A DNA stretch of 64,000 nt, taken from contig OZ242376.1 of NCBI GenBank assembly GCA_965209085.1, positions 1,056,001-1,120,000 of the forward strand, written 5' to 3'. Source of the stretch: Nitrosopumilaceae archaeon. GTDB taxonomy: Archaea; Thermoproteota; Nitrososphaeria; Nitrososphaerales; Nitrosopumilaceae. How positions within the stretch are numbered: position 1 is the first letter of the stretch; each line of letters opens with the position of its first letter. Positions 24,349 through 64,000 of this stretch are shown here, piece by piece. The notes under the pieces are model-generated. The model was given only the letters and a program-made list of their open reading frames with translations, was not told where the DNA came from and did no database searches. Both the position numbers and the translations under genes were made by a program.

Positions 24349-25782
24349 TAGGTCATATCACAACCTGCCTAATTCTGACATTTTGACTAAAACGATATTA
24401 AAATATCCAAGTTGGCGACAATTTTGATTCCATAGATTTAGATCATCCCACAAAGTGGACGAATTATGAGAAACACCCACGGAGATGATCCACTATGAGT
24501 AAAAAACACTGTAATAAAAATATCAAATGCAGAGACCAAAGAGGCGGATAAAAAAAGGATTGCCAAGAAAACCTGAAAAGCCGTGCTGCATCCATGCTGT
24601 TTGGCCATCTGAGCCAGTTTGCAGTCCCAAAAGAATACAAAAAAGAACTCAAATGCATGAACAAATGTAAGAACGGCAGACGTTACATGTATCCGGACAA
24701 GCTTTTTTGGGTATTATCGGTAATCCAAGCGTGCACAAGTTACTCAAGCTGCACTATTGAAGGGATGGTTAGAAAAGTAATGGATGATGCATCTCCATCT
24801 AGCAGTACGATATACAAACGCATACAGAGATTGGACATTTCTGATAACGGATTGGAAAAGATGGCCCGCATGTGTGGTCTCTTTAAAAACACTTGATCCG
24901 ACAAGGCGCATGAACGGACAGCCTACGATGCTCATCTCTATTGATTCAAGCGGACTGAAACTATCAAAACTTGGATCATGGATAAAAGAAAAATGGGGCA
25001 TATCAAGTCCGTTTCTAAAACTGCATCTTGTCATAAACGTAGAAACGCTTGAAATACTCGATTTTAAGATAACAAAAAGCAACAAGAGTGATGCATCACA
25101 GTTTCCACAGATGATAAGAAAGGCACGCAAAAAGATCAGATGGCAGCTTGCGCACATGATATCTGAGATGGATTCAACTGAAGAGACTGCCAAATACAAA
25201 AACACAATGATGAAAATTCTTGGCGATGGGGCATACGGTACAAAAGAAAATTACAACGTGTGTGACAAACTTTGCATGTCTGGTCTGTTAAAGGTGCGTA
25301 TCAATTCAGCACTGTCAGGCGGCAGTCATGAACGCAATACGGCGGTGCAAGATCAGCTTGGAGGAGATGCAAGCAAGCGTACAATGGATGATGTTTCAAT
25401 ACAAAAACGAAAGGAAAATCTGAAAAAATGGAAAAAAGATATAGAGTATGGAAAAAGATGTCACTCTGAAATTGTTTTTGCAATATTCAAAGAAAGGTTT
25501 GGAGAACATGTACGATCAAGACATATGAAAAACATAAAGCAAGAAATTGGCATGAAAATCCTAGTGTACAATTTGTTAATATGTGCCGTACACTGACACA
25601 AACTGCAATAAGCCTAGCGGACGCTGTATGCAGATGTGTGAATTTTGGAAGATTTTTGTGTAAAATTACGGTTTGATAACAAATGGGTCCGGATATCGAT
25701 GACAGATGTGTGTTTTTGAAATATTTACTGTCATTTTGGATGGAATTTCCAATAGAATTTTCAATAGTTGTGACATGGCCTA
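24349..25782 (+). mobile_element. IS5-family (IS903-like) element, frameshifted transposase, copy A
   Basis: IR TAGGTCATATCACAAC / GTTGTGACATGGCCTA and 8-bp TSD GGTAACTG. IDSSGLK, FLKLHL, GDGAY and SEIVF..KERFG motifs; frameshift near 24880. Confidence 0.9.
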
Positions 25783-31234: not shown

Positions 31235-32671
31235 TAGATCATGTCACAACTATTGAAAATTCTATTGAAAATTCCATCAAAAATGACAGAAAATCTTCCA
31301 AAAACACACATCTGTCATCGATATCATGACCCATTTGTTACCAAACCGTAATTTCACACAAAAATCTTCCAAAATTCACACATCTGCATACAGCGTCCGC
31401 TAGGCTTATTGCAGTTTGTGTCAGTATGCTGCACATATTAACAAATTGTACACTAGGTTTTTCATGTCAATTTCTTGCTTTATGTTTTTCATGTATTGAT
31501 CGTACATGCCCTCCAAACCTTTCTTTGAGCATTGCAAAAACAATTTCAGAGTGCCATCTTTTTCCATACTCTATATCTTTTTTCCATTTTTTCAGATTTT
31601 CCTTTCGTTTTTGGATTGAGACATCATCCATTGTACGCATGCTCGCACATCCTCCAAGCTGATCTCGCACCGCCGTATTGCGTTCATGACTGCCGCCTGA
31701 CAGTGCTGAATTGATACGCACCTTTAACAGATCAGACATGCAAAGTTTGCCACACACGTTGTAATTTTCTTTTGTACCATATGCCCCATCGCCAAGAATT
31801 TTCATCATCGTGTTTTTGTATTTGGCAGTCTCTTCAGTTGAATCCATCTCAGATATCATATGCGCGAGCTGCCATCTGATCTTTTTGCGTGCTATCTGAT
31901 CATCTGTGGAAACTGTGATGCATCCCCCTTGTTGCTTTTTGTTATCTTAAAATCGAGTATTTCAAGCGTTTCTACGTTTATGACAAGATGCAGTTTTAGA
32001 AATGGCCGGATATGCCCCATTTTTCTTTTATCCAGGGTTCCAAGTTTTGATAGTTTCAGTCCGCCAGAATCAATAGAGATGAGCATCACAAGCTGTCCGT
32101 TCGTGCACCTTGTCGGGTCAAGTGTTTTTAAGGACAGGCCACACATTCGGGCCATCTTTTCCAATCCGTTATCGGAAATGTCCAATCTCTGTATGCACTT
32201 GTATATCATACTGCCAGATGGAGGGCTGCATCATCCATTACTTTTCCAACCATCCATTCAATGGTGCCAGCTTGAGTAACTTGTGCACGCTTGGATTGCC
32301 AATAATGCCCAAAAAAAGCTTGTCCGGATACATGTAACGTCTGCCGTTCTTACATTTGTTCATGCATTTGAGTTCTTTTTTGTATTCTTTTGGGACTGCA
32401 AACTGGCTCAGATGGCCAAACAATATGGATGCAGCACGGCTTTTCAGGTTTTCTTGGCAATCCTTTTTTTATCCGCCTCTTTGGTCTCTGCATTTGATAT
32501 TTTTATTACAGTGTTTTTTACTCATAGTGGATCATCTCCGTGGGTGTTTGTCATAATTCGTCCACTTTGTGGGATGATCTAAATCTATGGAATCAAAATT
32601 GTCGCCAAATTAGATATTTTAATATCGTTTTAGACAAAATGTCAGAATTAGGCAGGTTGTGACATGACCTA
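31235..32671 (-). mobile_element. IS5-family (IS903-like) element, multiply frameshifted, copy B
   Basis: Inverted homolog of 24349-25782. IR TAGATCATGTCACAAC / GTTGTGACATGACCTA and 8-bp TSD CAATCCAA. Confidence 0.9.
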
Positions 32672-33937: not shown

Positions 33938-35053
33938 TACTGACACGCAAAAGTAACTGCAATTTATGACTCTAGGCACAATGTAACCTCAAGATATTTG
34001 GATCACCTCGGGTATGAATCAATCATGAACAAAGAACATCAGGAACTGTATAATGCAAGCAGGCATGTCAAAAACAGAAAAGAGATATCAAAAATATATC
34101 TTGTAAGCATGGTCAAATACCAAAACATCTCCATAGCTAAAGCTTCGGAATTACTGATGAAAAGCTACAACTGGGGCAAAGAATGCATGCAACGATATGA
34201 CGAGCTTGGATTAGACGGTCTTAAAACCCTGCCCAAATCGGGCAGGCCTTTATTATTATCAAATATACGATTTAAAAAAATTATTGACACGACAAGACGA
34301 GAGAACGGTTCAGTTGATCCAAAACAGGTAATGCACAACATTAAACGCAAAACCGGAGTAAAATATCACATATCAAACATCAGAAAAAGACTCCACAAAT
34401 TCTCATTTGTCAGCAAGGCTCCAAAAAGAATTCATGTCAATGCAGCGCCGGCATCAGTCTGCTACAACTGGTCGCAAAACACTAGGCGTCAAATACGCCT
34501 ACTTGAAGAGCGTGGATTTGCAGTAGGCGTTCAGGATGAATGTATAATAAAATACGATTCATTATCCGGCAAGAAACTCTGGATTGAAATAAGCAAAAAT
34601 TGTTACGTAAAATCCACAGGTTCTCACAAAAAAGTTGTTGTCTTTGGAGTACTCTTATCGGATAGCAGGCAGATGTTTGCAAGCTATGATTTGTTTGATG
34701 CAAAATCATTTCTCAAGTTTTTAAAAATGGCTCATCAAAAATTTGGAAAAATTTGCATGATTACGGATAGAGCTGCACAACACAGAAAATCCAAAATTAT
34801 TAAAAAATATATATCTGAGAATAAAGATGAGGTAAAGCTTTTGTTTTTCCCTACAAGTTCACCGTTTCTGAGTGCCGTTGAAGAATGCGGGCATCAAGCC
34901 AAACGTGCGTTGGTCGTCTCTGAATATTATGAAACATTTGAGAATATGAAATATACAATTTCAGAATATTTTAGAACTGTACGATTCAAAGTATCAATAA
35001 TGGATTTTGTTATGAGAAAAGCTGTAGATTGCAGTTACTTTTGATCCGCAGTA
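33938..35053 (+). mobile_element. IS630-family element, apparently intact
   Basis: IR TACTG....CAAAAGTAACTGCAAT / ATTGCAGTTACTTTTG....CAGTA with TA duplication. Confidence 0.88.
34025..35044 (+). CDS. IS630-family transposase
   Basis: GLDGL....SGRP HTH, QDE, TDRAAQH and SPFLSAVE catalytic D-D-E; uninterrupted ORF. Confidence 0.9.
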   Translation: MNKEHQELYNASRHVKNRKEISKIYLVSMVKYQNISIAKASELLMKSYNWGKECMQRYDELGLDGLKTLPKSGRPLLLSNIRFKKIIDTTRRENGSVDPKQVMHNIKRKTGVKYHISNIRKRLHKFSFVSKAPKRIHVNAAPASVCYNWSQNTRRQIRLLEERGFAVGVQDECIIKYDSLSGKKLWIEISKNCYVKSTGSHKKVVVFGVLLSDSRQMFASYDLFDAKSFLKFLKMAHQKFGKICMITDRAAQHRKSKIIKKYISENKDEVKLLFFPTSSPFLSAVEECGHQAKRALVVSEYYETFENMKYTISEYFRTVRFKVSIMDFVMRKAVDCSYF

Positions 35054-35085: not shown

Positions 35086-36196
35086 TACCCGCAAGCATAA
35101 ATTCGTTTAAAAATCCACCATTACACAATAGCAACGTTTTTTGATCACGACATCGGAACCAATTCATGCAAGTTAGCAATGAGGATCTCCTCCAGGCCTA
35201 TAATGACTGCAAAGATTCTCGCGTAAAAACGACTGCATGCGATGTGTCTGGTGCAGATACGCATCTACGACATAAAAGAAACTGCGGATCTCGTATTCTG
35301 AACATACCAGTTTGTGCACAAATGGCATAATCGATACAAAAAATACGGACTCAAAGGTCTGGAGGAAGGGTTCAGATATGGACGGTCGCCAAAAATTCCA
35401 CCATACACCATGATACAAATAAAAAAAGAATTTACAAAAATATGAACCGTTACACTTCCAAAGCTGGTTCGAGATTATATCAAAACTATGACAGGTGTAG
35501 TATATAATATCACATTACACACGTATGCAAGCTGATGCGGAAATGGAAACTAAAATCAAAGGTACCCCAAAAGATGCACGTCAACGCTGCATCATATGAT
35601 GAATGTTACACATGATATAGACGCACAATGCGTATTATTACGCACGAAATGGCAATGGGGCCAAAGATCTTTGTCCAAGATGAGACCATAGTGAGCAGTG
35701 ATGGTAAACTGGTCAAAAAATATTGGTGCAACGAGGATGAGCACCCAATCTATACGTGGAAATGGGATCATGGAAAATTCATAGCATATGGAATGATTTC
35801 AATTTCAGGAGAACGATTCTTTAGATCGCATGACAAGTTTGATGGTCCGACGTTTTTAAGATACGTCAAAGACGCAGTAGCAAAATATGGCAGAATACTG
35901 ATAATCGTAGATAGAGCCCGGCAGCACAGAACGATAAAGATTGAAGAATGCATCAAAGAGAACAAGGATAAGATTAGAATAGAATATCTTCCAAAAGCGT
36001 CGCCGCAACACAACATCCTGGAGATAATCTGCTTGTCGCCAAGCGTAATGTGGATCATTCGGAATATCACCATCAACTTGAAGATAAAAGGGTGGATTTT
36101 ATGGAATATCCGAGGACAAAAAAACTACCGAGTAATGTCATGGATTATTTTAAGCCAAAATTGGTAAATTTTTAAATGAATTTATGATCTGGAGTA
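35086..36196 (+). mobile_element. Second IS630-family element, degraded
   Basis: IR TACCCGCAAGCATAAATTCGTTTAAAAAT / ATTTTTAAATGAATTTATGATCTGGAGTA. Fragments with QDE, VDRARQH and SPQHNILE; multiple frameshifts. Confidence 0.8.
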
Positions 36197-47153: not shown

Positions 47154-48734
47154 ATGCAGTCAGCGGTTACATTTGAGATGGCATGTCATGAGATATCTCA
47201 GGGCATTCTCGCAGGAGGCAAACTGACGGTAAAGGCTGCAAGAGATGAGACAATGCGCGTATGTGCAAAATATTCACTCAGTAAGATACCCCGCAACGAT
47301 GAGATACTTGCAACTGTAAACGGTGAAAATTACAAGTCTCTTCAGAAAATCCTCATACGCAAACCAGTAAAGACTGCATCAGGTGTGGCAGTAATAGCCC
47401 TCATGGCCCGCCCGTATGCGTGTCCGCACGGCAGATGCACATACTGTCCTGGCGGAGTAGAGTACAACAGTCCAAACAGCTATACTGGAAACGAGCCATC
47501 CACTGTCAGCGCAATAGAGAGCGGGTATGATCCAAAAAAACAGATACTCTCAAAGATTGCAAAGCTTGCAGCATACGGCCATGAAAGCTCAAAGATAGAA
47601 ATCATCATAGTCGGAGGAACGTTTCTGTTCATGCCCGAACAGTACAGATATGAATTTGTAAAATCATGCTACGAGGCGCTCAACGGATTTGAATCTGCAA
47701 CCCTGTTTGAGGCGCAAAATGCAAACGTTAGTGCAAAACACCGCAACGTGGGATTCACCATAGAGACAAAACCGGATTACTGTAGAAAAGAGCACATTGA
47801 TGCCATGCTCACATACGGGGCGACCCGCGTTGAAATCGGCGTGCAGAGTCTGCAGGAGAATGTTTTAAAAAGATCAAACAGAGGGCACGGATTTGAAGAG
47901 ATTACAAGATCGTTTCAAGAGGCAAAAGATGCAGGGTATAAAGTTGCCGCCCACATGATGCCTGGCCTTCCTGGTGCAACTTTGGAAAATGATCTTGCCG
48001 ATTTTGAATCGTTGTATTCGGATACGCGTCTAGTTCCAGACATGCTGAAAATTTACCCCACGCTTGTATTGCGCGGAACGCCCCTGTATGAGGAATACAA
48101 GGCAGGCAGATACGAGCCGTACGATGAGGAGAGCATGATCTCACTTGTCGCAAAGGCAAAATCAAAAATTCCAAAATGGGTGCGCATAATGAGGGTACAG
48201 CGCGAGATATCCGCAGGCGAGATTATAGCCGGTCCAAAATACGGCAATTTTAGGCAGACTGTACTGCAATATATGAGAGAGAACGGTATAAAGTGCTCGT
48301 GCATCAGATGCAGGGAGGCTGGATTGTCAGGTAAGAATTCAATCAGCGAGGATCTTGTACTGTACAGGAAAGATTATGATTCATCTGGCGGTCGCGAGGT
48401 GTTTTTATCATACGAGGATAAAGAGGAGTCAGTGTTCGGATATTTGAGACTGAGAATGCCAAGCAGTATTGCACACAGGTCAGAGATATCAGATGGTACT
48501 GGAATAATACGGGAAATTCACGTTACAGGTAAAACTGTCGGAGTGGGTATCAAAGATGGGAGCATACAGCATGCTGGAATTGGAACGGCTCTGCTGCGGC
48601 GGGCAGAATCTGTGGCAAAAGAAGAGTTTGGGTGCTCAAAGATGCTTGTAATCAGCGCCGTTGGGACGCGCGGGTATTATGCAAAATTTGGATATTGTAT
48701 GGACGGGCCATACATGGCCAAAAATATGGTGTAA
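47154..48734 (+). CDS. elp3: tRNA U34 carboxymethylation radical SAM/GNAT enzyme Elp3
   Basis: KTASGVAV, CPHGRCTYCP, ETKPD, LKIYP and REIHV..QHAGIG motifs. Confidence 0.95.
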   Translation: MQSAVTFEMACHEISQGILAGGKLTVKAARDETMRVCAKYSLSKIPRNDEILATVNGENYKSLQKILIRKPVKTASGVAVIALMARPYACPHGRCTYCPGGVEYNSPNSYTGNEPSTVSAIESGYDPKKQILSKIAKLAAYGHESSKIEIIIVGGTFLFMPEQYRYEFVKSCYEALNGFESATLFEAQNANVSAKHRNVGFTIETKPDYCRKEHIDAMLTYGATRVEIGVQSLQENVLKRSNRGHGFEEITRSFQEAKDAGYKVAAHMMPGLPGATLENDLADFESLYSDTRLVPDMLKIYPTLVLRGTPLYEEYKAGRYEPYDEESMISLVAKAKSKIPKWVRIMRVQREISAGEIIAGPKYGNFRQTVLQYMRENGIKCSCIRCREAGLSGKNSISEDLVLYRKDYDSSGGREVFLSYEDKEESVFGYLRLRMPSSIAHRSEISDGTGIIREIHVTGKTVGVGIKDGSIQHAGIGTALLRRAESVAKEEFGCSKMLVISAVGTRGYYAKFGYCMDGPYMAKNMV

Positions 48735-48739
48735 TATGC

Positions 48740-50314
48740 ATGGAGAAAAAAATAGGACGCGGTACGTGGATTGACAAACTTGCCTCAGAAATGCTAGAGC
48801 GTGAAAAAAAACTTTGCAGGGACACTAGCATTCTCAGAGTTGAGAGCGGTCTTGGCGCCTCGGGCATCCCGCATGTTGGAAGTCTTGGGGATGCTGTAAG
48901 GGCATACGGGGTAAAGCTTGCCCTGCAGGATTTGGGATACAAGTCTGAATTAATTGCATATTCAGATGATATGGACGGGCTGCGCAAAATACCTAAAGGG
49001 TTTCCAAAATCACTAAACGAGCATTTAGCAAAGCCGGTCTCTCTTATACCGGACCCTGACAGCTGCCATGGCTCTTACGGGGAGCATATGAGCAGTCTTT
49101 TGCTTGAAGGCTTGGATGATTTGGGCATAGAGTATGAGTTTAGGCGGGCGTATGATACGTACGGTAATGGTGATTTAAAAGAGCAGACGCATGCAATATT
49201 ATCCCAAAAGAATATCATCGGGGAGAAAATTTCAGACATGGTCGGACAGGAAAAATTTACAAAATATCTGCCGTATTTTGCAGTCTGTGCCAATTGCAAG
49301 AAACTGTACACTACAGAATCCCTAGAGTATGATGCAGAAAATCGTGCCATCTCATACGAGTGCAAAGATGCAAAAATCAGCGGAAATATAATCAAAGGGT
49401 GCGGACATGCGGGGATATCCCGCATCGGGATTGATTTGGGCAAGCTTGCATGGAAGGTGGAATTTGCCGCAAGATGGGCCGCATACGATATACGGTTTGA
49501 GGCGTACGGCAAGGACATTATGGATTCGGTGCACGTAAACGACTGGGTTGCAGAAAAGATACTAGGGTATGCACCCCCACACCATGTAAAATATGAAATG
49601 TTTTTGGACAGGGGCGGTAAAAAAATATCAAAGTCGCTTGGAAATGTGATAACGTCTCAAAGATGGCTCAAATACGGATCAAAGCAGTCGCTGCTATTGC
49701 TATTGTACAAACGAATCACCGGAGCGCGCGAGCTTGGATTTGAGGATATTCCATCCCTGATGGACGAATATCACGAATTGGAGAGCGCATATTTTGCAAA
49801 CAAAGGATCCGGAAACGCCGCAAAGGATGCAAAGATGCACGGTCTGTACGAGTATGTGAATTTGCTGCAGATCCCGTCTGCCCCCGCCCCCCACGCAAAA
49901 TACATGCTAGTGGTAGAACTTGCGCGCATATTTGTGGAAAATCGTGCAGAGTGTATCATCAAAAAACTCTTGGATTATGGAGCCATTAAAGAGTCATCTG
50001 TTGAGATTAAAGGTTTGGTGCAGATTGCCGGAAATTATGCAGATGATTTTGGCAGCAAGGATGCACAGCTAGTTGATGCACAAGATGAGGTGCGTGTGGC
50101 ACTTTTGTCCCTAGCTGATTCGCTGGAATCAAATTCTAGCGTGCAAAACGCCGCATATGAGGCTGCCAAATCTGCCGGTGCAAAACCTCGCGACGTATTC
50201 GTATGCATGTATCAGATACTTTTGGGTTCTTCTAGCGGACCGCGCCTTGATCCGTTCATTGCAGATATAGGAGCTGCAAAAGTGGCGCATAAAATAAGGG
50301 AGGCTTTGGCGTAA
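48740..50314 (+). CDS. lysS: Lysine--tRNA ligase, class I
   Basis: ESGLGASGIPHVG, SDDMDGLRK, GKLAWKVEFAARW, KISKSLGN and SGPRL motifs; ATG at 48740. Confidence 0.95.
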   Translation: MEKKIGRGTWIDKLASEMLEREKKLCRDTSILRVESGLGASGIPHVGSLGDAVRAYGVKLALQDLGYKSELIAYSDDMDGLRKIPKGFPKSLNEHLAKPVSLIPDPDSCHGSYGEHMSSLLLEGLDDLGIEYEFRRAYDTYGNGDLKEQTHAILSQKNIIGEKISDMVGQEKFTKYLPYFAVCANCKKLYTTESLEYDAENRAISYECKDAKISGNIIKGCGHAGISRIGIDLGKLAWKVEFAARWAAYDIRFEAYGKDIMDSVHVNDWVAEKILGYAPPHHVKYEMFLDRGGKKISKSLGNVITSQRWLKYGSKQSLLLLLYKRITGARELGFEDIPSLMDEYHELESAYFANKGSGNAAKDAKMHGLYEYVNLLQIPSAPAPHAKYMLVVELARIFVENRAECIIKKLLDYGAIKESSVEIKGLVQIAGNYADDFGSKDAQLVDAQDEVRVALLSLADSLESNSSVQNAAYEAAKSAGAKPRDVFVCMYQILLGSSSGPRLDPFIADIGAAKVAHKIREALA

Positions 50315-54415: not shown

Positions 54416-55587
54416 TAGCGCCAATCAAAAGTTCATGAGTATTTTTGGAGATTTTCTAAATATATAATCCACAATATTCAGATTGAATTTTACGGTCCTT
54501 AAATATTCAGACACCACATTCTGCATAATGGTAAACGTTGGACAATATTCGGATACCACCAATGCATATTTGTTAATCTTCCAGCACTGTTTGATCATGT
54601 TCAAATATGGTGATCCCTTTGGCAACAAAATTAATTTGACATTGGGATTGTCTGTTAGAAACTCTCTGACTTTATTTGATGTGTACCGAAGCGCGATCCA
54701 ACATTATTGCGATTTTTCCATATCTGTATTGCAACTCTTTCAAATATTTTACAAATGTTACAGAATTGAATTTTTTGTAAATTCTAAACATTTGATTCCC
54801 ATTCTCCAACATGGTTCCGTATACTGCAAAATTTTCATGTTTTCCAACATGTGGTAAAAATATTCGTTTTGCAACAAGTGACCAATATTTACGTCCTGCT
54901 TTTATATCTCTGACAAAGAACGCCTCATCCAACATTGCAATGGTAAATCCATTCTTTTTTAGGCGTGAAATTCTCTTTTTCATATATTGTTGCCAGTTGC
55001 ATACTGATGCAGCACTTGCATGATTTATGTGGTATTTCTGTGTAGTCTTGGCAGACATGCCATACTGATGCATGATCTTTCTAACATATGTAATATGCAA
55101 TTTTTCTCCAGTAACGTCATCTATTCTTTATTGTACCTACACAGGCGTTGCTATGGCAGATGTTATTTTGAGCATTAGACTTCATGCATAATGGGTCAAA
55201 TTCACAATTTTTACGAATAAAAATGACCAATTTGAACGATTATGCATACGGTCTATTATGGAACCCATTTATTTCTTTGAGACAATTCTTACTCGTCCAT
55301 TTTATGGGCGATCGCGGAGGCCATCAAGACCATCCGCATCAAAACGATCCACCCACATACGTACCCAATTCGGGCAATGTCGCAGCATATTTGCAATTTC
55401 TTGTACTTGTTTGCCATCTTTGCAAACCATGAGTATTGCAAGCATTCGTGTTGATGCTATACTGGAACGTTCTTTCTTGTACGCTTTTTCAAGTTGTTCT
55501 AATTTGTTCATGTGTATTGTAATAATTTGGAGATCCAAATACTTTTCGGTTCGATAAATTTATCTTATGAACTTTGGCGTGTGGCTA
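54416..55587 (-). mobile_element. IS630-family element, degraded and carrying a MITE
   Basis: IR TAGC....CAAAAGTTCAT / ATGAACTTTG....GCTA with TA flanks. Fragments with GLDGLRDRP, LDEAF, LDRASVH and SPYLN. Confidence 0.83.
55177..55254. mobile_element. Palindromic MITE (78 bp), copy 2
   Basis: AGAC...GTCT flanked by ATT/ATT; removal restores tcc-ata-atg-ctc in the IS630 transposase frame. Confidence 0.8.
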
Positions 55588-56206
55588 TAACATTACTTCC
55601 AAATTGAACGTAATTTTCGTAATTTTTTTCGATCATACACAGATGCATCTAATTCACAGAGTATATTTTTTTGATTAGAATATTTATTTAAAAGTGCTAA
55701 AATTCTTAATATCGCAATTTGAGAGTATTTTTGCAATTTGGCAGTTATTTTCTCAAGATCATCGTCTTTCAGTTGATTTCGATCTTTTTTCCGATGTTCC
55801 ACACCATGTACAATTGAATTTCTTATTTGGTAAACATTTTTAGAGAATTTCCAAATTTCTAACATTTGATCATCATTATTACTTAATAATGCAGACATTC
55901 TATGCGCAATTTTTGTTGTGGTATCACCAGCACCAGTAGTAAGAAGAGATTCCAATGCTATCACATAATCCAATATTTTTTCCTTCTCATTATTATGATC
56001 GTGTGCCAAACCAAAACGCCTTAATGTATATAATATTGTTAATCGGTCATTTTCGAGTAATTTATTATAGATGTTTTTATAAAATAATTCAAGTTTTTTA
56101 ATTATTACAGGATTTAATTGGACTATATTAGATGTGGATTGTTTAATTGGTTCCCAACCAAAATTTTTTAATGTTCCAATATCCCAGATATCTGACATTC
56201 TAGAAT

Positions 56207-57463
56207 AGATGTCTTGCGTAATAAAAAATTCGGCATAACAATATATTGTGCCTAATAATTAAAGTGTTATGTTAAAAAATCACATTCTGGAATATGATTT
56301 ACAGTTAATCTAAGACAATACGCCACATGTCAATTATGTGATCACCGTTTGCAGTAATTCATGTTGGAACAATGTAGGTTTGCAAACCCACGCGACAACA
56401 TGTACATCTGGTCAATATCGGGCGTGCAGTATGATGTTATAATGAGCGTGCCCACTCATTTTTGTAATTTATTAATCCGTTTACAACCTGCACGATTCCA
56501 TCATATTTATCAAATCGTGATCGGAATACATCTCGGCGTATGTTGAATTTCTTAATTCTGCTGTAAACATGTTCTATCCGTACACGTACGCTTGAGAGTA
56601 ATTTATTGTGAAATATTTGTTCGCGGGTTCTCTTTTTATTTTTATATTTTTTACAGGGTATGATCGAATTTGCTTGTGGAAACGCGTCATGTATTCCCTG
56701 ATATGCACTATCATAGAGATTTGAAACAGAATTCAACAGATCCTGCGTAATTTTGTTTTCACACTGCAGTGGGTGGTTCTCTTTTACAATGGCATAATCG
56801 TGTACACTGCCAGGATATGACATTGAGCTATACAAGATCATTCCGTTTCCGTTTATGACTTCTGTTGTTTTTCTGGTATGTGTTTTGTGCTTGCCAGAAT
56901 AGTTTTTCTTTTGTTCTTCCTTGTCACTTGGACGCCATACCCGTTGTTCGGTAGCATCTGTAACGCAATAATTGTCAGGAAAATTCTTTTCAAGATCTTT
57001 GGAAGATTTTATTTCTAAAACTTGTTTGTGTAGTTTATGTGGAGTTGGAAGAATATCTGCCAATATCTTTAGAATCATGCCTATGTTTCGTTGTACATTA
57101 CTTTGATCCAAGTCAAACATGTATCCTATTTTTTCATACGACTGGTATTCTCGTAAATAAACAAGCGTCATTATTAACCGATCTGGCAGTGACAAGTGAT
57201 GTTTCCTGCCTCCTCCTGGACTTCGTTGTCTTTCTGCTGCATCTGCAACATCCAGCTGGCATTCAAGATATTTTTTACGTATGCCAGGAATCAAGGAATC
57301 AAATTCTTCGACCGTAAGACCGGTAAACGCCTTGAATGCACGCGGTTTTTTGCGCATTGTCGTTTCTGAGAACACAAAACACAGTAAACATGCATGAAAA
57401 TAGATCGATGTGATCTAAAAGTTTGGACTGCATGATTGAATTTCTTTATTACGCAAGGCATCT
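56207..57463 (-). mobile_element. IS5-family (ISL2/Harbinger-like) element, intact
   Basis: IR AGATGTCTTGCGTAATAAA / TTTATTACGCAAGGCATCT and 3-bp TSD AAT. Confidence 0.9.
56437..57375 (-). CDS. IS5-family transposase (DDE_Tnp_4-like)
   Basis: F..FTGL...EF, GGGRK, DATE...RP, YSGK, GSVHD, DSAYQG and RVRIEH motifs. Confidence 0.9.
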   Translation of the reverse strand: MFSETTMRKKPRAFKAFTGLTVEEFDSLIPGIRKKYLECQLDVADAAERQRSPGGGRKHHLSLPDRLIMTLVYLREYQSYEKIGYMFDLDQSNVQRNIGMILKILADILPTPHKLHKQVLEIKSSKDLEKNFPDNYCVTDATEQRVWRPSDKEEQKKNYSGKHKTHTRKTTEVINGNGMILYSSMSYPGSVHDYAIVKENHPLQCENKITQDLLNSVSNLYDSAYQGIHDAFPQANSIIPCKKYKNKKRTREQIFHNKLLSSVRVRIEHVYSRIKKFNIRRDVFRSRFDKYDGIVQVVNGLINYKNEWARSL

Positions 57464-58183
57464 AATATAGACCGCCAAATATAGGATCACCAGAATTAAA
57501 TAATTTAAGAGCACCTAAGATATGTTCAGTGTCTGGAATTATTTTTTTTTCAGTTCCGGGTATTCGTTTATGTTTACAGATCAAAACGCATTTTAAATTT
57601 AATTGGTAAGGAGGGATAGTATCCTGAGGTGATTTTTGTATATTTAATATGTAAGAATATTCCGCGTCAGTGATTTTACGAATCCATAAATTATCAGTTA
57701 ATATAATTTTTGTGAAATTGCCATCAACATTGTATATTGGTATCAAATAATATAATAATTCTACATCATATGTTATATAATTTACAAAATTAGAAATTGT
57801 GTCATGTAATAATTGTTTTGTGTTATTTTCACTGTTTTTTATCGCATATGATATAGCATAATCCAAATATGATTTGGCAGGTGTGGGGTTAGTTTTATAG
57901 TTGTTTTGAATCAGTAATGATTTGAGAACATCGTGTAGAACATCGTAAGAATTATTATTATCACCATCATACTGATTTTTAAGATCAATTCTTACATCAT
58001 GGTTAAGTTTAATATGATCAATTTGAGTTATCATATCCATGTTTAATAATTTTCCATTCAAATCTCTTAATGGTTTTTTTACAGATTTTTGATAATTTTG
58101 AGGATTTTGTTCTAATCTATTTTTACATATGTCTAATGTGTTTTCTAAAAAAGGTCTCATATGTTTTTCCAATGTTTTAGTGT

Positions 58184-59239
58184 TCATCGTTGTTCCGGCA
58201 TCGATCTAGTTAGGATTCCTAATTTATCATGCAGATATGTTGCTAAGTTTGAACCATTGGGTGTTCTTTTATTATCAATGATCACAATTCGAGGGTTTGC
58301 GCGCTTTACATATTCTATAAGATCTGTAAACTCCGCATGTTCGTCAGAAGCAATCCAAAATTTTTCATTTTTGTTTTGTGCGGTAAAATTTCCAAAACCA
58401 CCAGTTATTGATATTCTTCTCATGATGCCTTCATTTTCTTCAGAAGTATGTTGCATGGTATCTCTAAATTCTATTCTAGGATATCTCTCTTCCATCAAGT
58501 TTTCTGCATCAGGTGATTTAATATCCAACAGCCTTTCTTGTTGTACGGTACAATCATCTCTATTATTGTATATGTTTGTCATTCTAATGTTTGTGTCACT
58601 AGCAAGGAATTTTATTGTATTAGGAATATTGCTATTATTGGCAAGGCTACACATGACGTGTTGTAATTTTCCTCTATAAGCGTGAATGCATACGGACATT
58701 CCTTTGTTTATCGCTTCAACTACCCAATCGTTTAATCTACGTTCAAGACTTTCGCCGTCAATTTGTTTGTCAAAACGTATGTTACCATGTGTAGAATCAA
58801 TTACTAGTACGTCACATTCTGGTGCTTTATCTTGTGGAGAGATGTCGCCAGAATATACTATTTTGACATTATCATCGGTTTGGAGAAAAACTTGACCAGA
58901 CCCAAACATATGTTTAGATTCAAATAATGTAAGATAATCAGCACTTCCATTATGACGGATCGGTACAGATTGTCCAAAATCTAGTTGGTGAAGTTGTGTT
59001 CTTAGTTCATACGTATCGTTATTTATCGCTTCCAATAGCTTTGCGGTTACATGAGACATGAATACAGGATATTGATGCATACATCGTTCAAAGCTATTTT
59101 TAGCATGATCAACGTGAGGATGAGTAAAAACCGCGGCTTTGACCCCAGGTATAAATCCATCACAAACCACAGATTTTCCAAGTCTGATAGAACCATCGTC
59201 AGTCACACTAGCATATGAAAACAGATCATGGTCAGTCAT
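58184..59239 (-). CDS. Metallo-beta-lactamase-fold (beta-CASP-like) nuclease
   Basis: THPHVDH (HxHxDH), SKHMFGS, YSGD, IDST and SDEHAE motifs. Confidence 0.82.
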   Translation of the reverse strand: MTDHDLFSYASVTDDGSIRLGKSVVCDGFIPGVKAAVFTHPHVDHAKNSFERCMHQYPVFMSHVTAKLLEAINNDTYELRTQLHQLDFGQSVPIRHNGSADYLTLFESKHMFGSGQVFLQTDDNVKIVYSGDISPQDKAPECDVLVIDSTHGNIRFDKQIDGESLERRLNDWVVEAINKGMSVCIHAYRGKLQHVMCSLANNSNIPNTIKFLASDTNIRMTNIYNNRDDCTVQQERLLDIKSPDAENLMEERYPRIEFRDTMQHTSEENEGIMRRISITGGFGNFTAQNKNEKFWIASDEHAEFTDLIEYVKRANPRIVIIDNKRTPNGSNLATYLHDKLGILTRSMPEQR

Positions 59240-59998
59240 TTAATCAACTACAGATTCTAACATATGATTTATGACATTTTTACGCAGTATGTTATGATAT
59301 GAAGAATATTCATTTATAGATGCATGTCCAATTTTGGTAAGTGATAGTCGAATATAATCATCAAACATATGAGAATTTTTTAATGACGTTGGCGGAAATT
59401 TTTTAGAGAGTAAAAATTTTGTAAAATCATGTAGGTTTTGTTTTTTATCAATAGATAATTTTTGTATTATTTTTACTAGTTCAGGATCAATACCGCTAAT
59501 GAATATGAAATGTTCAATGATATCAGTTCTTTTTATGTCTAGTTCATTTGAAATACATTCTTCAATAGATTTGTTAGGATTTCTTTTTTTCCATTGAATG
59601 ATACCTTTAATTTCAGTTTTGGTAATCGGGTGAGGCATAATCATAATAGCATTCACTGTTTTTAGTATATCATCTTTATTTTTCAAATATGTCAATCGAG
59701 TGGCTACGCTAAATCCAATAGATTCATTTGTTTTTGATACACCCCACATGATCATATCTTGTATTTCATCAGGTAATTCGAGTAATCTTAGAAATTGGTT
59801 CAACATATCTATAGACAATCTGAGTCTTTTTATCACTTCGTTTTTATCATTATTCATATCGTGCAACAAATTTTGAAGTTCTTTTGCAACTTCAACAGGT
59901 CGCAATGGCCTGTCAATGTAATCAACCTTTATGCTAGAAAGCAATTTTGCCAAACGTTGAGGATTACGTAATAATATCAGATCAGACATTTGTAGCAA
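59240..59998 (-). CDS. Hypothetical protein with ParB/Spo0J-like HTH region
   Basis: LRPVEVA...RLRLSIDMLNQFLRLLELPDEIQDMI..G resembles the HTH/central region of ParB proteins; no CTPase box. Confidence 0.6.
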   Translation of the reverse strand: MLQMSDLILLRNPQRLAKLLSSIKVDYIDRPLRPVEVAKELQNLLHDMNNDKNEVIKRLRLSIDMLNQFLRLLELPDEIQDMIMWGVSKTNESIGFSVATRLTYLKNKDDILKTVNAIMIMPHPITKTEIKGIIQWKKRNPNKSIEECISNELDIKRTDIIEHFIFISGIDPELVKIIQKLSIDKKQNLHDFTKFLLSKKFPPTSLKNSHMFDDYIRLSLTKIGHASINEYSSYHNILRKNVINHMLESVVD

Positions 59999-60803
59999 TC
60001 AAACCTATACCAATTAGTTCTGACACAGCATTTTCGTTGGTATCAATTCCTTTTACGGTTTTGAATATTTCGATTTTTTCTATTTGATCTTCTGTTACGT
60101 CTATGTGCAATATGTTCGATTGTGTTCGTTTTTTTGCCTTTTCTACTGCTGCTATAGGGGTTATGCCAGGATTGCTATGTATTATGCCGCCTACTTTATT
60201 CTTTGCTCCAGTAGAAAGAGGTTTCATGGCAATCGCTGTTTCTATAAGCATTTTTGTATCAACGTCAGATTCATCCCCTCCTAGTGCATTAAGAGCTTTG
60301 AATGCGTTATCTTGAGTAATTGTTTTGTCATTGATAGCTTCTTGGACATCTTCGGGTAAGCTGTTTACAGCAATATATTTTCGAATGGTGCTTTCAGATA
60401 ATCCTAATTCTTCAGCTACGGATTTAACTGTACGATATTTTCTCATATACATATCTACAATATCAACATAATCAGCACGTTTCATTTCTTTGCGTGCGGT
60501 ATTTTCTCCAAGAGAGATACGTTTAGCTTCAAATTCATCAATTTCACGGGTTACATAACGTGCAGATATGGTAGACATGTTCAATATCTTGTGTACTTGA
60601 AGTCGTCTTTGACCTGCTACTAGCTCAAATTTTCCATCAGATAGTTTTTTGACGATAACTGGGCTAGTCATGCCATCTTTTCTTATGCTGTGAACCAAAT
60701 CATCATCAGATTTAACTATGGTGTCTCTTTGTCGTGCTTGAGAATTACCAAGTGTGACATTTTCCAAGGATACTTCTATTATCTCGGGAGATAGTAAGCT
60801 CAT
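59982..60803 (-). CDS. ParB/Spo0J-like protein (N-terminal CTPase/Srx fold plus HTH)
   Basis: Q.R, LVHSIRKDG..SPVIV, FELVAGQRRL, EN..R and VAEELGLSESTIRKY motifs. Confidence 0.87.
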   Translation of the reverse strand: MSLLSPEIIEVSLENVTLGNSQARQRDTIVKSDDDLVHSIRKDGMTSPVIVKKLSDGKFELVAGQRRLQVHKILNMSTISARYVTREIDEFEAKRISLGENTARKEMKRADYVDIVDMYMRKYRTVKSVAEELGLSESTIRKYIAVNSLPEDVQEAINDKTITQDNAFKALNALGGDESDVDTKMLIETAIAMKPLSTGAKNKVGGIIHSNPGITPIAAVEKAKKRTQSNILHIDVTEDQIEKIEIFKTVKGIDTNENAVSELIGIGLIATNV

Positions 60804-60879
60804 ATGTGATAATTAATGCCATCATTAAATAATATATCGAAATGTTGTTTTTAACTAGGCGTGAATTTACCTTCTTTTT

Positions 60880-62037
60880 TTAGTCAAAACGTATATTTGA
60901 CAAATTTTTTACAGCGTTTAAGACATGTTTTATGAGATAATCTATCTCATCATCAGTGTTAAATCGCCCCATTCCAATTCTGATCGCCAAATGAGAATCT
61001 TCCTCACCCATCCCCAATGCAAGGAGTACGTGGGAGGGTTCGACGGATTGTGTAGTGCATGCAGAGCCGGCAGAAATTGCAATTTTTTTGTTGATAGTAT
61101 TGATTATAGCTTTTCCGTCAATTCCAGGAAAAATAACGTTGATGTTATGCAAGAGTCTGTTATTAGGAGGTCCATTTAATTTTGCTCCAAATTTTTGAAA
61201 TGATTTCATAATATTTTTAAACCATTTTCCAAATCTAATGTTTTCTTCATGCATCTCATTAATAGCAATTTCGATCGCTTTGCCAAATCCTACGATAGCT
61301 GGAACGTTAAGAGTTCCAGAACGCATATTCCGTTCTTGACCACCTCCACGTAGAATTGGATCTGGTTTAACTCTAGGTTTTATACCCCGTACATACAAAG
61401 CTCCAATTCCTTTAGGACCATACATTTTATGAGCTGAAAACGACATTAAGTCAATATTCATTGCTTGTACGTCAATTGGAATATGGCCTACAGCTTGGGC
61501 TGCATCTGTATGGAAAATAATATTCTTTTCGTGTGCTATTTTTCCAATTTTTTCGACATCGGCAATTGTTCCAATTTCATTATTGGCTGCCATGATAGAT
61601 ATCATTACAGTTTTATCTGTAATTGAATTTGATAATTCATTCAGATCTATTTCCCCGTATTTATTTACAGGTAAATACGTAATTTTTTTACTCAAAGTTT
61701 CCAAATATTTGGCAACATCTAATATTGCATCATGTTCAGTAACACAAGTAATTAGATGATTTCCACGGTCGGCATATTTTTGCATGGTTCCTACTAATGC
61801 CAGATTATTTGATTCTGTTGCGCCACTGGTAAATATAATTTCATCATATTGTGCGCCAATTGATTTTGCAATTTTCTCTCGTGCAGATTTTACAGCTATA
61901 GATGCTTCATTTCCAAAAGAGTGATCTGTGCTAGACGCATTGCCAAATTTTGTTGTAAAATAAGGCATCATTTCTTCCAATACACGGTTATCCAAAGGTG
62001 TAGTTGCATGATGGTCAAGGTATATTGGAAACTTCAT
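60880..62037 (-). CDS. dndA: Cysteine desulfurase DndA
   Basis: YLDHHATTP, DAAQAVG, SAHKMYGPKG and SAGSAC motifs; start overlaps the dndE stop (ATGA). Confidence 0.87.
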   Translation of the reverse strand: MKFPIYLDHHATTPLDNRVLEEMMPYFTTKFGNASSTDHSFGNEASIAVKSAREKIAKSIGAQYDEIIFTSGATESNNLALVGTMQKYADRGNHLITCVTEHDAILDVAKYLETLSKKITYLPVNKYGEIDLNELSNSITDKTVMISIMAANNEIGTIADVEKIGKIAHEKNIIFHTDAAQAVGHIPIDVQAMNIDLMSFSAHKMYGPKGIGALYVRGIKPRVKPDPILRGGGQERNMRSGTLNVPAIVGFGKAIEIAINEMHEENIRFGKWFKNIMKSFQKFGAKLNGPPNNRLLHNINVIFPGIDGKAIINTINKKIAISAGSACTTQSVEPSHVLLALGMGEEDSHLAIRIGMGRFNTDDEIDYLIKHVLNAVKNLSNIRFD

Positions 62038-62429
62038 GTTTGTACTGCTCTTTCTTGCTGGATAACATAAGCAAAATCAGATATTTTATGTATTCTTGCA
62101 AATAATGCTATTGCTCCACGATTAAAATGAGCCCGGACCATTTTATTTAAATATTTTTGTGGATCTAACCCTTCACGTTTTAATCTTTGAACCATTAATG
62201 CCATAAATACATCTTCGTATTCTCCAAACATGACAGATGGATGTATTTCAGAACCTTTTTCATCAAATTCTTCTGGATTTGGAGGGGATGGATCATTAAG
62301 TGACATACATATTGCAAATCTACCAACAATATTTGGAGTAAGACCAGTTCTTGATTTAATCTGGGCAAGTAGGTTTTGTGAACGATAGCTCATTCGTAAT
62401 CTGTTAAACCGTAACAATTTTTTCTCCAT
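62034..62429 (-). CDS. dndE: DNA sulfur modification protein DndE
   Basis: L..K.RTGLTPNI..RFA.C.SL, FGEY and H..RG motifs; directly downstream of dndD. Confidence 0.88.
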   Translation of the reverse strand: MEKKLLRFNRLRMSYRSQNLLAQIKSRTGLTPNIVGRFAICMSLNDPSPPNPEEFDEKGSEIHPSVMFGEYEDVFMALMVQRLKREGLDPQKYLNKMVRAHFNRGAIALFARIHKISDFAYVIQQERAVQT

Positions 62430-64000
62430 CGTTATTCCAGAAATAGCCTTCATATCCTTTCGTAGAACCCTCATCTTCTGAATATTTTATGATGTAGGAT
62501 CTTGTCATGTATGGTTTTAATTTTTTATAATATTGATGTTTTATTTCTTCATCGGTTGAAAATATCAAAATTTGATGTGACACGATGGGAAAGAATGTTT
62601 CAACTAGATTATTTCGGTGATTGCTGTCTAGCCTAGCAAGAGGCGTGTCGATCATAAATGGTAAAGGTCTCCCAGAAGTTTTAGCGAGTGCCCAAAGTAC
62701 AGCAGTTGCAAGCATTTGTTTTTCTCCTTCTGATAAAAGATCCCTTGGAAAAGGTTCACCATTTTTTCGGAATAATTGAATTTCAAATGTTTGTGGATTG
62801 ATTTTTGTATTTATAAAATCGTTTTTGTGCATTAATGTTTGAAGTCCTTCTAATAGATATTCTTCAAGTAGATGAATTTTCCTTACAGTTATTTTTTCAA
62901 CAAATTCCTCTAAAACTTTTTGGACATTTTGTGTTAATTTTACACCATGCTTTGTTTTTTCTGTTTTGTAAATCTTAGAAACAATGTCTCTAAGTTTTGA
63001 ATCTAAATGTTGGCGTAAGGCTTTGTTAGTGGTAATTTGTTCTTCAATATGATCAATTTCAGATTGTAATGCTCCTTGTTCGGAACGTGTATTACCAAGT
63101 TTAGACATCAATGGACCGATTTCGTCGTCTGCAGGAGCACTGGCAATTGTCATCTGAAGTTTTTCAATGTCACCATCAACCTGAATTATTTTATCTGTAT
63201 CTTTGTTTAAAATCGAGTGAGTTACAGTATTAGCTTTTTTAGCAATATCCAAAATTCTCATCATTTGTTTTGTTGAAAATCCAAATATGAGTTTTTTAGA
63301 ATTAACAGAATGTTGTATATGATCTTTAAATATTTTATTCAATGTTGCCATCATGTTAGACGCTGATTTTGAGTCAATGCCAGCATCTCGCCATAATTTT
63401 TGTTCATTAATCTGATTTTTGAGTATATCAATTTTTGATTCCATTATTGTCCGGCCAAATTGTTCCTGTTGGATAGATTCATCAATTTCCAAATGTTTTA
63501 CCAATATTTTCATTTCGTTAGGAATTAAAGTAAATGGAAGTACGTCATCACATAAATTATGAATTCTTTGTCGTATGCTTTCACGGATAATTTCTTTTTT
63601 AGCTAATTTTGCTTTTAATTCATCCCTATTACTAACAAAGTCTCCACCAATTTTTGATATTTGTGTTTCAAGCATGTCTATGTCCATGTTTAATGAATCC
63701 ATGTTTGTTTGTTTTTGGGCAAGGCGTTCTTGTAATTTTATAGTTATCTGAATGCTGTCATCCTTTTCACTCTTGAATTTATCAAATTCTTGTTGCAAAT
63801 ATTTAGTACCTTTAATGAGATTACGCATTAGGTTTACTTGCAGATCTGTATTTAATTGTTCAATTATATCTATGCCCAAAAGAGATTTGAATGATTCTTT
63901 AATTGTGAGATTTTCTGAGCCTTCTTTAGCAATATTCACAATTTTTTCTCCATCAAAAAAGAATAGTTTGATTATTCCCTTTGGAATTAGATCTTCAATA
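62404..64000 (-). CDS. dndD: DNA sulfur modification ATPase DndD (5' end outside the window)
   Basis: LFFFDGEKI, long coiled coil, LSEGEKQ, LWALA..SGRPLP..IDTPLARLDS.HR and SHQILI.STD.E motifs. Confidence 0.92.
   Translation of the reverse strand, partial: IEDLIPKGIIKLFFFDGEKIVNIAKEGSENLTIKESFKSLLGIDIIEQLNTDLQVNLMRNLIKGTKYLQQEFDKFKSEKDDSIQITIKLQERLAQKQTNMDSLNMDIDMLETQISKIGGDFVSNRDELKAKLAKKEIIRESIRQRIHNLCDDVLPFTLIPNEMKILVKHLEIDESIQQEQFGRTIMESKIDILKNQINEQKLWRDAGIDSKSASNMMATLNKIFKDHIQHSVNSKKLIFGFSTKQMMRILDIAKKANTVTHSILNKDTDKIIQVDGDIEKLQMTIASAPADDEIGPLMSKLGNTRSEQGALQSEIDHIEEQITTNKALRQHLDSKLRDIVSKIYKTEKTKHGVKLTQNVQKVLEEFVEKITVRKIHLLEEYLLEGLQTLMHKNDFINTKINPQTFEIQLFRKNGEPFPRDLLSEGEKQMLATAVLWALAKTSGRPLPFMIDTPLARLDSNHRNNLVETFFPIVSHQILIFSTDEEIKHQYYKKLKPYMTRSYIIKYSEDEGSTKGYEGYFWNNDGEKIVTV

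Follow-up and report, generated by a model that had tools for sequence, protein, structure and literature searches.

What serves as the restriction partner of the phosphorothioate (PT) modification genes, dnd, in archaea of the family Nitrosopumilaceae, nitrifiers of global importance with antiviral defences that are still little known? We addressed this question in a stretch of 64,000 nucleotides (the window; G000:C1:1056001-1120000) from the genome of a Nitrosopumilaceae archaeon (GenBank assembly GCA_965209085.1, contig OZ242376.1), which is a single contig of 1.69 Mb and 98% complete. Many dnd clusters count as 'orphan' modification systems, and, to our knowledge, only a handful of effector modules of PT-based immunity are known, namely DndFGH, PbeABCD, SspE, SspFGH, DndI and the SBD-HNH enzymes. 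Thaumarchaeal dnd genes are mentioned, with no partners given, in PMC6790972. We found that the dnd genes at the end of the window are followed by a cassette with a predicted core of a ParB protein, a ParB-type helix-turn-helix (HTH) protein and a beta-CASP metallo-beta-lactamase (MBL) nuclease. This core is usually joined by a HEPN protein and, in one subtype, by an SNF2 helicase and a protein of 266 amino acids (aa). The cassette is probably (at roughly 60%, by our estimate) a PT-linked alternative restriction or effector module working with dnd.

The modification part of the locus extends beyond the window, and we, therefore, also used 20 kb fetched beyond the window end (L002; coordinates L002:n refer to this flank). 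According to the list of open reading frames (ORFs) of the window and L002, all genes of the finding are on the minus strand. The flank carries dndC (PADLOC, 606 bits; TIGR03183, 515.5 bits, cut-off 290.4) and dndB (PF14072, 363 bits), giving the order dndB-C-D-E-A on one strand, a complete dndBCDEA set. DndC (PAPS-reductase-like), DndD (SMC-like ATPase) and DndE are all over their cut-offs and adjacent, which makes them a Dnd modification module by sequence. The product of dndA scores 403.9 bits against TIGR03235, below the equivalog cut-off of 480, and models of IscS/NifS score alike. The overlap of dndD, dndE and dndA described by a first-pass annotation of the window agrees with the ORF coordinates: dndD overlaps dndE, and the dndE stop overlaps the dndA start by 4 nt. 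The same annotation pointed to the region upstream of dndD as the place to look for further dnd, dndFGH or pbe genes; dndC and dndB lie there, and neither dndFGH nor pbe genes were found in the flank.

Downstream of dndA, a gap of 76 bp is followed by four co-oriented, coupled genes, again as first annotated (Table 1). The parB and HTH genes overlap by 17 nt when the listed TTG is taken as the start, the HTH stop lies immediately before the MBL ATG, and the MBL stop overlaps the start of the fourth gene (G4) by 4 nt. The first three genes are intact in the source genome, with all conserved residues kept in the ParB273 and MBL351 alignments. The spacer likely provides the cassette with its own promoter; elsewhere, the cassette is found in other orientations relative to dnd. 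The palindrome of the spacer sits between the TATA-like stretch and the parB ATG and is a possible operator or loading site; beyond this short palindrome, no parS site was identified.

Homologues of the nuclease define 31 loci: the window, 6 places in genome contigs, 5 in metagenomes and 19 more that a search of 401 genomes of the class brought up. The scans of genome contigs and metagenomes used narrow peptide patterns of subtype 1, and their 6 and 5 loci understate the family; genomes G132, G282, G326 and G230 enter the 401-genome tallies only. The order ParB-HTH-MBL was found in 27 of the 31 loci, two others being cut within the triad and two holding MBL fragments only. Among the ordered loci, the MBL gene is cut by the contig end in L021, and a transposase of the IS630 type interrupts ParB in L057 (L057:12082-13146). 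Conservation of the arrangement in 30 other loci indicates that it is not due to chance.

Five loci lie on contigs shorter than 4 kb and are uninformative on neighbours. In 22 of the 26 informative loci dnd genes are found within 10 kb of the cassette, usually directly adjacent: 12 cassettes stand in tandem after dndA, 7 are convergent with the dnd genes and 3 diverge from dndB. Among the 401 genomes, the MBL family is present at E≤1e-30 in 21, dndC exceeds its cut-off in 49, and both occur together in 20. Homologues of the block are, thus, strongly enriched beside dnd, a point that the first-pass annotation had raised as a question: besides the 22 of 26 loci, 20 of the 21 nuclease-bearing genomes are dndC-positive, against 49 of 401 overall. 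The sole family-bearing genome without dndC is G204, whose cassette contig ends inside dndA. The remaining 59 matches of the 401-genome search comprise partial weak matches in G303 and G017 and housekeeping MBL proteins of about 380-450 aa (mostly 423 aa) that cover approximately half of the profile; G303, which holds a nuclease fragment only, has no dndC. The locus L015 is a 3.9-kb contig of a 'Rubritalea' metagenome-assembled genome without dndC, and may be mis-binned.

Linkage to dnd is maintained despite exchange of the cassette. Pairwise identities of DndC and of the MBL nuclease were uncorrelated over 19 loci (Spearman 0.10, 171 pairs), much like the similarity of Pbe and DndCD proteins given in PMC6459918 (rho 0.107). 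We defined groups from nuclease similarity and gene content before building the DndC tree. In the MBL tree, subtype 1 (the window and five other loci) and the SNF2-linked loci are each set apart by a single branch of high support (99/98 and 100/99, respectively). In the DndC tree, each of the two labels needs 6 changes, and some sister pairs combine different subtypes, for example L011 and L068 (100/99); forcing subtype 1 together on this tree was rejected (delta lnL 660.9, p-AU 7.3e-12). Closely related dnd clusters, thus, carry deeply different versions of the cassette: the modules have been swapped time and again and yet remain neighbours.

A comparison with dnd loci that have no cassette covered 16 loci in 14 dndC-positive genomes; for 8 of these loci, selected neighbours were scanned with PADLOC. 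The position next to dndA is held by PbeA and PbeC in L073, L078 and L086 (250-700 bits) and by Orf5/HEC-06/SspE-like DUF262 proteins in L072, L074 and L080; AbiU is found there in L073. Several other cassette-free dnd loci have gene sets of like sizes, a comparison of sizes only. Judged by these contents, the space beside dndA is an effector slot.

The cassettes themselves vary around the core. In 8 loci, an SNF2 helicase and the 266-aa protein, which is of no known family, lie directly before parB; the helicase of L058 has its best PADLOC matches to BrxH, DrmD, ZorD and DpdE, and the other seven were found by tblastn at 52-86% identity. In L065 a GHKL-type ATPase (HATPase_c_3, 687 aa; L065:12593-14656) lies directly upstream of parB, where other loci have SNF2. 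The HEPN gene is present in 15 of 27 loci. Some loci without it (L063, L067, L068 and L070) instead encode, convergently to the nuclease gene, proteins that combine Mrr_N, HNH_repeat and DUF7669 in different ways, and in several the Mrr_N/DUF7669 gene abuts the nuclease gene; these proteins may replace the HEPN arm. In L058 (11865-13061 and 13084-14667, minus strand), and also in L052 and L056, a 398-aa protein is encoded convergently, and after it comes another MBL/RMMBL beta-CASP protein, of 527 aa; the arrangement may represent a paralogous nuclease pair.

By its conserved residues, MBL351 is a beta-CASP metallo-beta-lactamase nuclease. Across 27 homologues (down to 21% identity) the HxHxDH motif is kept; H40, H42, H45, H110 and H301 are invariant, and D44, D132, D148 and D322 are at least 90% conserved. 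The best profile match is to aCPSF1 (3.1e-15), followed by FttA, Cas14, CPSF73 and SNM1A, and the matches to aCPSF1, Cas14 and CPSF73 span the beta-CASP region. Against Pfam Lactamase_B_2 the protein scores 25.9 bits, slightly under the cut-off of 27. Metal motifs and beta-CASP-type residues are, thus, common to MBL351 and the beta-CASP nucleases (aCPSF1/FttA, CPSF73, SNM1A, Cas14 of type VII CRISPR and the ligase-associated exonuclease), from which it differs in being compact, in having no KH or other RNA-binding domain, and in scoring far below every equivalog cut-off. In Cas14, a beta-CASP fold serves as an immune nuclease. A profile search of 1.84 billion representatives returned 258 members of the wider family at E≤1e-30; among 10 of its representatives, one carries the name 'Cft2 family RNA processing exonuclease'.

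Structures of CTP-dependent clamps (Noc, Spo0J, ParB and KorB) align with the profile of ParB273, the best of them at an E of 6.8e-15. The motif GQRR, which we take to be the GxxR box of ParB proteins, is unchanged in all 26 homologues compared, and the glutamate of what is presumably the ENxxR box is at least 90% conserved. With a ParB_N domain bearing the GxxR box and a ParB HTH, ParB273 is a predicted member of the ParB/Noc CTP-clamp family. It shares with these clamps the N-terminal domain, the invariant GxxR box, the ENxxR glutamate and the HTH; the cassette differs from them in being a nuclease operon beside dnd, with a second ParB-like protein that has no NTPase domain. ParB273 had no SspE match in PADLOC and no GmrSD_N match in Pfam.

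That second protein, HTH252, was modelled by AF2 with a pLDDT of 92.7, and its nearest folds in Foldseek are the DNA-binding domains of Noc, Spo0J, ParB and KorB. Against 6y93 the target TM-score was 0.86, with an rmsd of 2.3 A over 112 columns, a Foldseek probability of 1.00 and an E of 0.08; the best Foldseek E overall was only 5e-3. Foldseek gave no structural match to the C-terminal alpha/beta domain. In P0116, a protein of 582 aa from a cluster of 4 sequences and one of the 258 members of the wider MBL family, an HTH252-like domain is naturally fused to the nuclease (hhalign 99.5%, E 5e-23). This fusion speaks for the HTH protein and the nuclease working on DNA as a single unit. A complex prediction for ParB273 with HTH252 scored 0.00 and counts neither way.

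The fourth gene is interrupted by an insertion sequence (IS). The first-pass annotation had a HEPN gene coupled to the MBL gene; the coupling stands, but the coupled 241-aa ORF is not itself the HEPN part, which lies in the separate 201-aa ORF beyond the IS. Upon removal of the IS and one copy of the target duplication, the 241-aa and 201-aa ORFs share a frame, two codons apart. Both halves align end to end with intact homologues, and the intact gene here would encode approximately 444 aa by reconstruction; in 13 other loci a single ORF of 436-485 aa directly follows the MBL gene. We set the IS ends by aligning 4 copies, of which 3, including the copy in the window, have the 3-bp duplication (ANT-type). 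The genome holds two full copies at 100% identity, a third at 98% and several fragments (G000:C1 at 1169734, 755622, 684339 and other places, with fragments clustering at 692-697 kb), and the identity of the copies argues for a recent insertion; the element looks active. No IS-free joint was found in the contigs of four sequencing runs over 55400-58400, where contigs break at the IS ends. The HEPN gene is, by this reconstruction, inactivated by the IS in the source genome.

Assignment of the C-terminal part of G4 to the HEPN superfamily comes from the Rx4-6H motif in a predicted four-helix fold. In the alignment of homologues, R378 and H383 of the Rx4H motif are at least 90% conserved. An intact homologue was modelled with a pLDDT of 87 and a pTM of 0.83, and residues 295-425 of the model match HEPN structures with Z of 8.8-7.5, values that are middling for helical folds: 4nqf (Z 8.8, rmsd 3.5, 117 aligned), 2hsb (8.2), 1ufb (7.7), a HEPN toxin (7.7) and Csm6 (7.6). 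No Pfam HEPN model passes, G4 belongs to no Pfam or PADLOC family, and a Foldseek search of the PDB with the model gave nothing at E≤0.001. The N-terminal two thirds gave nothing informative: residues 1-149 had generic helical matches, and the middle domain is covered by almost none of the matches listed. We also considered an ApeA-type N-domain (ApeA_NTD1 with Apea-like HEPN). The atlas lead was only 0.80, and 1 of 15 members matches HEPN_Apea (E 0.029); a comparison of G4 with the genome's own ApeA-like protein gave an hhalign probability of 0.1%, and the kinship is not supported.

None of the known effector modules compared here matches the cassette. The four proteins, their subtype-2 homologues and intact G4 matched no model of PADLOC v2.0.0 (2023), including DndFGH, Pbe, Ssp and others, at E≤0.01 beyond weak HTH/HEPN noise. 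Against DndF, DndG and DndH, no PADLOC or NCBIfam match was found at E≤0.01. The cassette had no PbeA match, and PbeC models matched DndD itself only, while genuine PbeA and PbeC of neighbouring genomes reach 300-700 bits. HNH domains are missing from all cassette proteins, and the fusion of DUF262 to a DUF1524 HNH is, thus, not in the cassette. The impression recorded at first pass, that the four genes are unlike DndF/G/H or Pbe, is therefore supported by PADLOC and NCBIfam. As to whether the block is an already named system, PADLOC v2.0.0 gave no match, and we found no description in the full-text literature searched, a search that the supplementary neighbourhood tables of PMC10853773 and PMC6459918 lie outside.

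The best model for how the cassette may work is offered by SspE (of SspABCD-SspE) and DndI (of IscS-DndBCDE-DndI). According to PMC11662687, both sense PT through a DUF262 NTPase of the ParB superfamily, which governs the HNH nuclease fused to it, and in DndI the sensing of PT stimulates the NTPase and frees the enzyme from self DNA. The cassette would likewise join a ParB-superfamily NTPase to a nuclease in linkage with PT. It differs in that SspE and DndI hold DUF262 (DGQQR) and a DUF1524 HNH nickase in one chain, whereas the cassette distributes ParB_N (GQRR) with HTH, an HTH adaptor and a beta-CASP MBL over three proteins, with HEPN in addition. The haloarchaeal system PbeABCD, which acts only with PT present (PMC6459918), resembles the cassette as four genes after dndCDEA in archaea, and shares the slot with it in related Nitrosopumilaceae; its components, however, are PbeA (PLD/Res/helicase), DndD-like PbeC and the small PbeB and PbeD, and the cassette matches no Pbe model. 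DndFGH, the classical dnd restriction partner (a nickase and translocase), consists of large multi-domain proteins to which the cassette proteins are unmatched. The catalogue of dnd neighbourhoods by Aravind and colleagues (PMC10853773) proposes the HKD, HNH, REase, URI, HEPN and PIN nucleases found there as alternative effectors of restriction or suicide; the terms MBL, lactamase and beta-CASP are absent from its main text, where ParB comes up solely as DndB.

Taken together, the block is most likely a PT-based defence system with a new effector cassette, in which the defence function and the dependence on PT are the predicted parts. By analogy, the cassette most likely takes the role held elsewhere by DndFGH, PbeABCD, SspE or DndI. 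DndBCDEA would mark host DNA with PT. ParB273 would be the NTP switch that reads PT status; it would engage DNA in the manner of ParB/Noc/KorB clamps and of the DUF262 domains by which SspE and DndI sense PT, and HTH252 would tether the MBL nuclease to DNA. The nuclease would cut or degrade unmarked DNA judged foreign; the HEPN protein would be a second, probably RNA-cleaving, abortive-infection arm that shuts the cell down, and SNF2 would add translocation in one subtype. The 'alternative effector module' of the first-pass annotation, thus, holds as regards linkage to dnd and the lack of a match to known effectors, while virus restriction, PT dependence and the division of labour are still inferences.

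A more specific and rather tentative version, to which we give a minor share of belief, is that a canonical ParB CTP switch serves as the immune sensor. ParB would load and spread or slide on DNA; a PT 'self' signal would release or silence it, and unmarked DNA would license the beta-CASP nuclease via the HTH adaptor, with SNF2 in one subtype and HEPN as the suicide arm. If true, the cassette would be the first restriction system based on a ParB CTPase and, among ammonia-oxidising archaea, the main PT-linked effector. The effector reading in general would account for the partner in about 40% of the dnd clusters sampled from Nitrosopumilaceae (20 of 49 dndC-positive genomes); two families new to PT biology (a CTP-clamp-type ParB and a beta-CASP nuclease) would be added, and the ParB-NTPase-plus-nuclease logic of SspE and DndI would be seen a third time, in split form. 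The reading of PT by ParB-fold switches would become directly testable with small, separately expressible proteins.

Several observations weigh against an effector that works with dnd. Four of the 26 informative loci (L013, L061, L066 and L070, the last a nuclease fragment only) have no dnd genes within 10 kb, and 29 of the 49 dndC-positive genomes have no cassette. All context-resolved members fall within Nitrosopumilaceae; the loci are kin, and the counts are no statistical test. The R of the ENxxR box is Q in several subtypes, so that CTP hydrolysis cannot be taken for granted. Among solved structures, those closest to MBL351 are RNA-processing beta-CASP enzymes (aCPSF1, FttA and CPSF73), and its substrate could be RNA. 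In this genome, moreover, the HEPN gene is broken, and the role of PT effector could fall to the DUF262 protein encoded upstream of dndB.

The solitary cassettes of L013, L061 and L066 could indicate an autonomous defence system, in which ParB and HTH guide the MBL nuclease, HEPN is added, and islands are shared with dnd with no need for PT. The separate spacer with its promoter-like stretch, the exchange independent of dnd and the presence of other defence genes nearby (GmrSD-like, Mrr_N and HEPN_Apea proteins) are consistent with this. We nevertheless consider it unlikely, because dnd is adjacent in 22 of 26 informative loci in three orientations, because family-bearing genomes are so often dndC-positive (20 of 21, against 49 of 401), and because no other defence gene is comparably constant beside the cassette. 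Every solitary copy, moreover, is in a dndC-positive genome; those of L013, L061 and L066 have dndC elsewhere.

The cassette might instead serve the PT mark as a set of nuclease and helicase directed at DNA, either repairing or processing PT-linked damage, or tuning PT placement like a second DndB-type regulator. Indeed, the best NCBIfam match of MBL351 is TIGR04122, a ligase-associated DNA damage response exonuclease (E 1.3e-11, far below the cut-off), and SNM1A matches too; DndB is itself a ParB-superfamily regulator (PMC10853773), and SNF2 enzymes act in repair also. The HEPN partners (15 of 27 loci) and the frequent decay by IS or into pseudogenes, seen in the window, L057, L070 and L059, where the HEPN gene is in three pieces (L059:8113-9482), are, however, typical of costly immune effectors. 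In addition, the slot otherwise holds Pbe or DUF262 effectors, and dndB is already present in the same loci. A role in upkeep of the mark, thus, appears quite unlikely.

The broken HEPN gene also allows that, in this genome, the cassette is a decaying passenger and that the 587-aa DUF262/GmrSD_N protein adjoining dndB is the working PT sensor-effector, of the SspE/DndI kind. DUF262 effectors do flank dnd in L072, L074 and L080, and we regard the protein as a possible second candidate for a PT-linked effector. But no DUF1524/HNH domain was detected in it, its Orf5/HEC-06 scores are weak (E 1e-7), it had no PDB sequence match, and tblastn gave no match to it beside the cassette or in other dnd loci. 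ParB, HTH and MBL are, moreover, intact here. That the cassette has been superseded by this protein is, therefore, improbable, and the two readings can hold together. Finally, it is very improbable that ParB273 and HTH252 serve the partition or maintenance of a mobile element, with the nuclease genes as unrelated neighbours: ParB273 passes the partition-domain model TIGR00180 (ParB/RepB/Spo0J) and the region is low in G+C and IS-rich, but no ParA-type ATPase was found among the scanned neighbours of the cassette, both genes share translational coupling with the MBL gene, an HTH is fused to MBL in P0116, and searches gave no relatives of the MBL family on viral contigs and none of the P0116 fusion on plasmids.

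Table 1. Features of the dnd locus, the cassette and their surroundings. Plain coordinates are those of the window.
Feature	Coordinates	Strand	Evidence or remark
dndD, C-terminal 531 codons in the window	62404..64000, continues to L002:1482	-	TIGR03185 340.5 bits (cut-off 245.85); PADLOC DndD 439 bits
dndE	62034..62474	-	PF08870 83.1 bits; TIGR03184 74.6 bits (cut-off 71.85)
dndA, NifS/IscS-family cysteine desulfurase	60880..62037	-	PADLOC DndA 529.5 bits; Aminotran_5 293 bits; operon position
Spacer dndA-parB, 76 bp	60804..60879	-	A+T-rich TATA-like stretch ~25-35 nt before the parB ATG; palindrome 6-nt/4-nt/6-nt
ParB273: ParB N-terminal (CTP-binding type) domain, HTH, C-terminal domain	59982..60803	-	PF02195 45.9 bits (cut-off 26.3); PF17762 26.7 (22.6); TIGR00180 81.8
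HTH252: ParB-type DNA-binding domain without N-terminal NTPase domain, alpha/beta C-terminal domain	59240..59998	-	PF17762 32.2 bits
MBL351: compact beta-CASP-type metallo-beta-lactamase-fold nuclease (predicted), ~350 aa	58184..59239	-	Conserved ligands; profile matches
G4, N-terminal half, 241 codons	57462..58187	-	Stop at IS boundary; aligns to first ~300 columns of intact homologues
IS, 1257 bp, DDE_Tnp_4 / IS5-family-type	56207..57463; transposase 56437-57375	-	Terminal inverted repeats; 3-bp target duplication at 56204-56206 and 57464-57466
G4, C-terminal half, 201 codons, HEPN domain (Rx4H)	55593..56198	-	Weak PADLOC CARF_HEPN match, E 4e-4
Further transposase genes/fragments (DDE_Tnp_1; DDE_3/IS630 type)	24784-25596, 31467-31859, 33998-35044, 35628-36167, 54672-55100		Region IS-rich for a 1.7-Mb genome
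DUF262/GmrSD_N protein, 587 aa	L002:4544-6307 (G000:C1 ~1123544-1125307)	-	PF03235 65.9 bits; 541 bp upstream of dndB
Apea-like HEPN protein, 417 aa	L002:6556-7809	+	PADLOC candidate PDC-S58, E 6e-40; another defence gene of the island
Mrr_N/HNH_repeat/DUF7669 proteins of other loci	L063:10560-12659, L067:10531-12330, L068:8310-9428, L070:7361-9577	convergent to nuclease gene	L067 matches PADLOC PDC-S18

The locus lies in a stretch of foreign character. From ~52 kb of the window onward, G+C falls from about 0.43-0.47 to 0.32-0.37, marking a foreign island, the left edge of which comes after the lysyl-tRNA synthetase gene (48632-50314). The first-pass annotation had described an integrase-bearing island; the low-G+C stretch is real, but Pfam scans of 69 ORFs (59 of the window and 10 of L002) revealed transposases and no integrase. 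The island-edge ORFs of 432 aa and 286 aa had no PDB sequence match and no Pfam family, so that no integrase was found there either; no tRNA was found in 48-64 kb of the window. On its far side, the defence island is adjoined by a giant ORF of at least 3315 aa with seven bacterial-surface Ig-like domains (L002:9852-19799, minus strand). Within the window, at 19652-20278, housekeeping genes surround an ORF of 208 aa that weakly matches the restriction-endonuclease domain Mrr_cat (E 1.3e-4).

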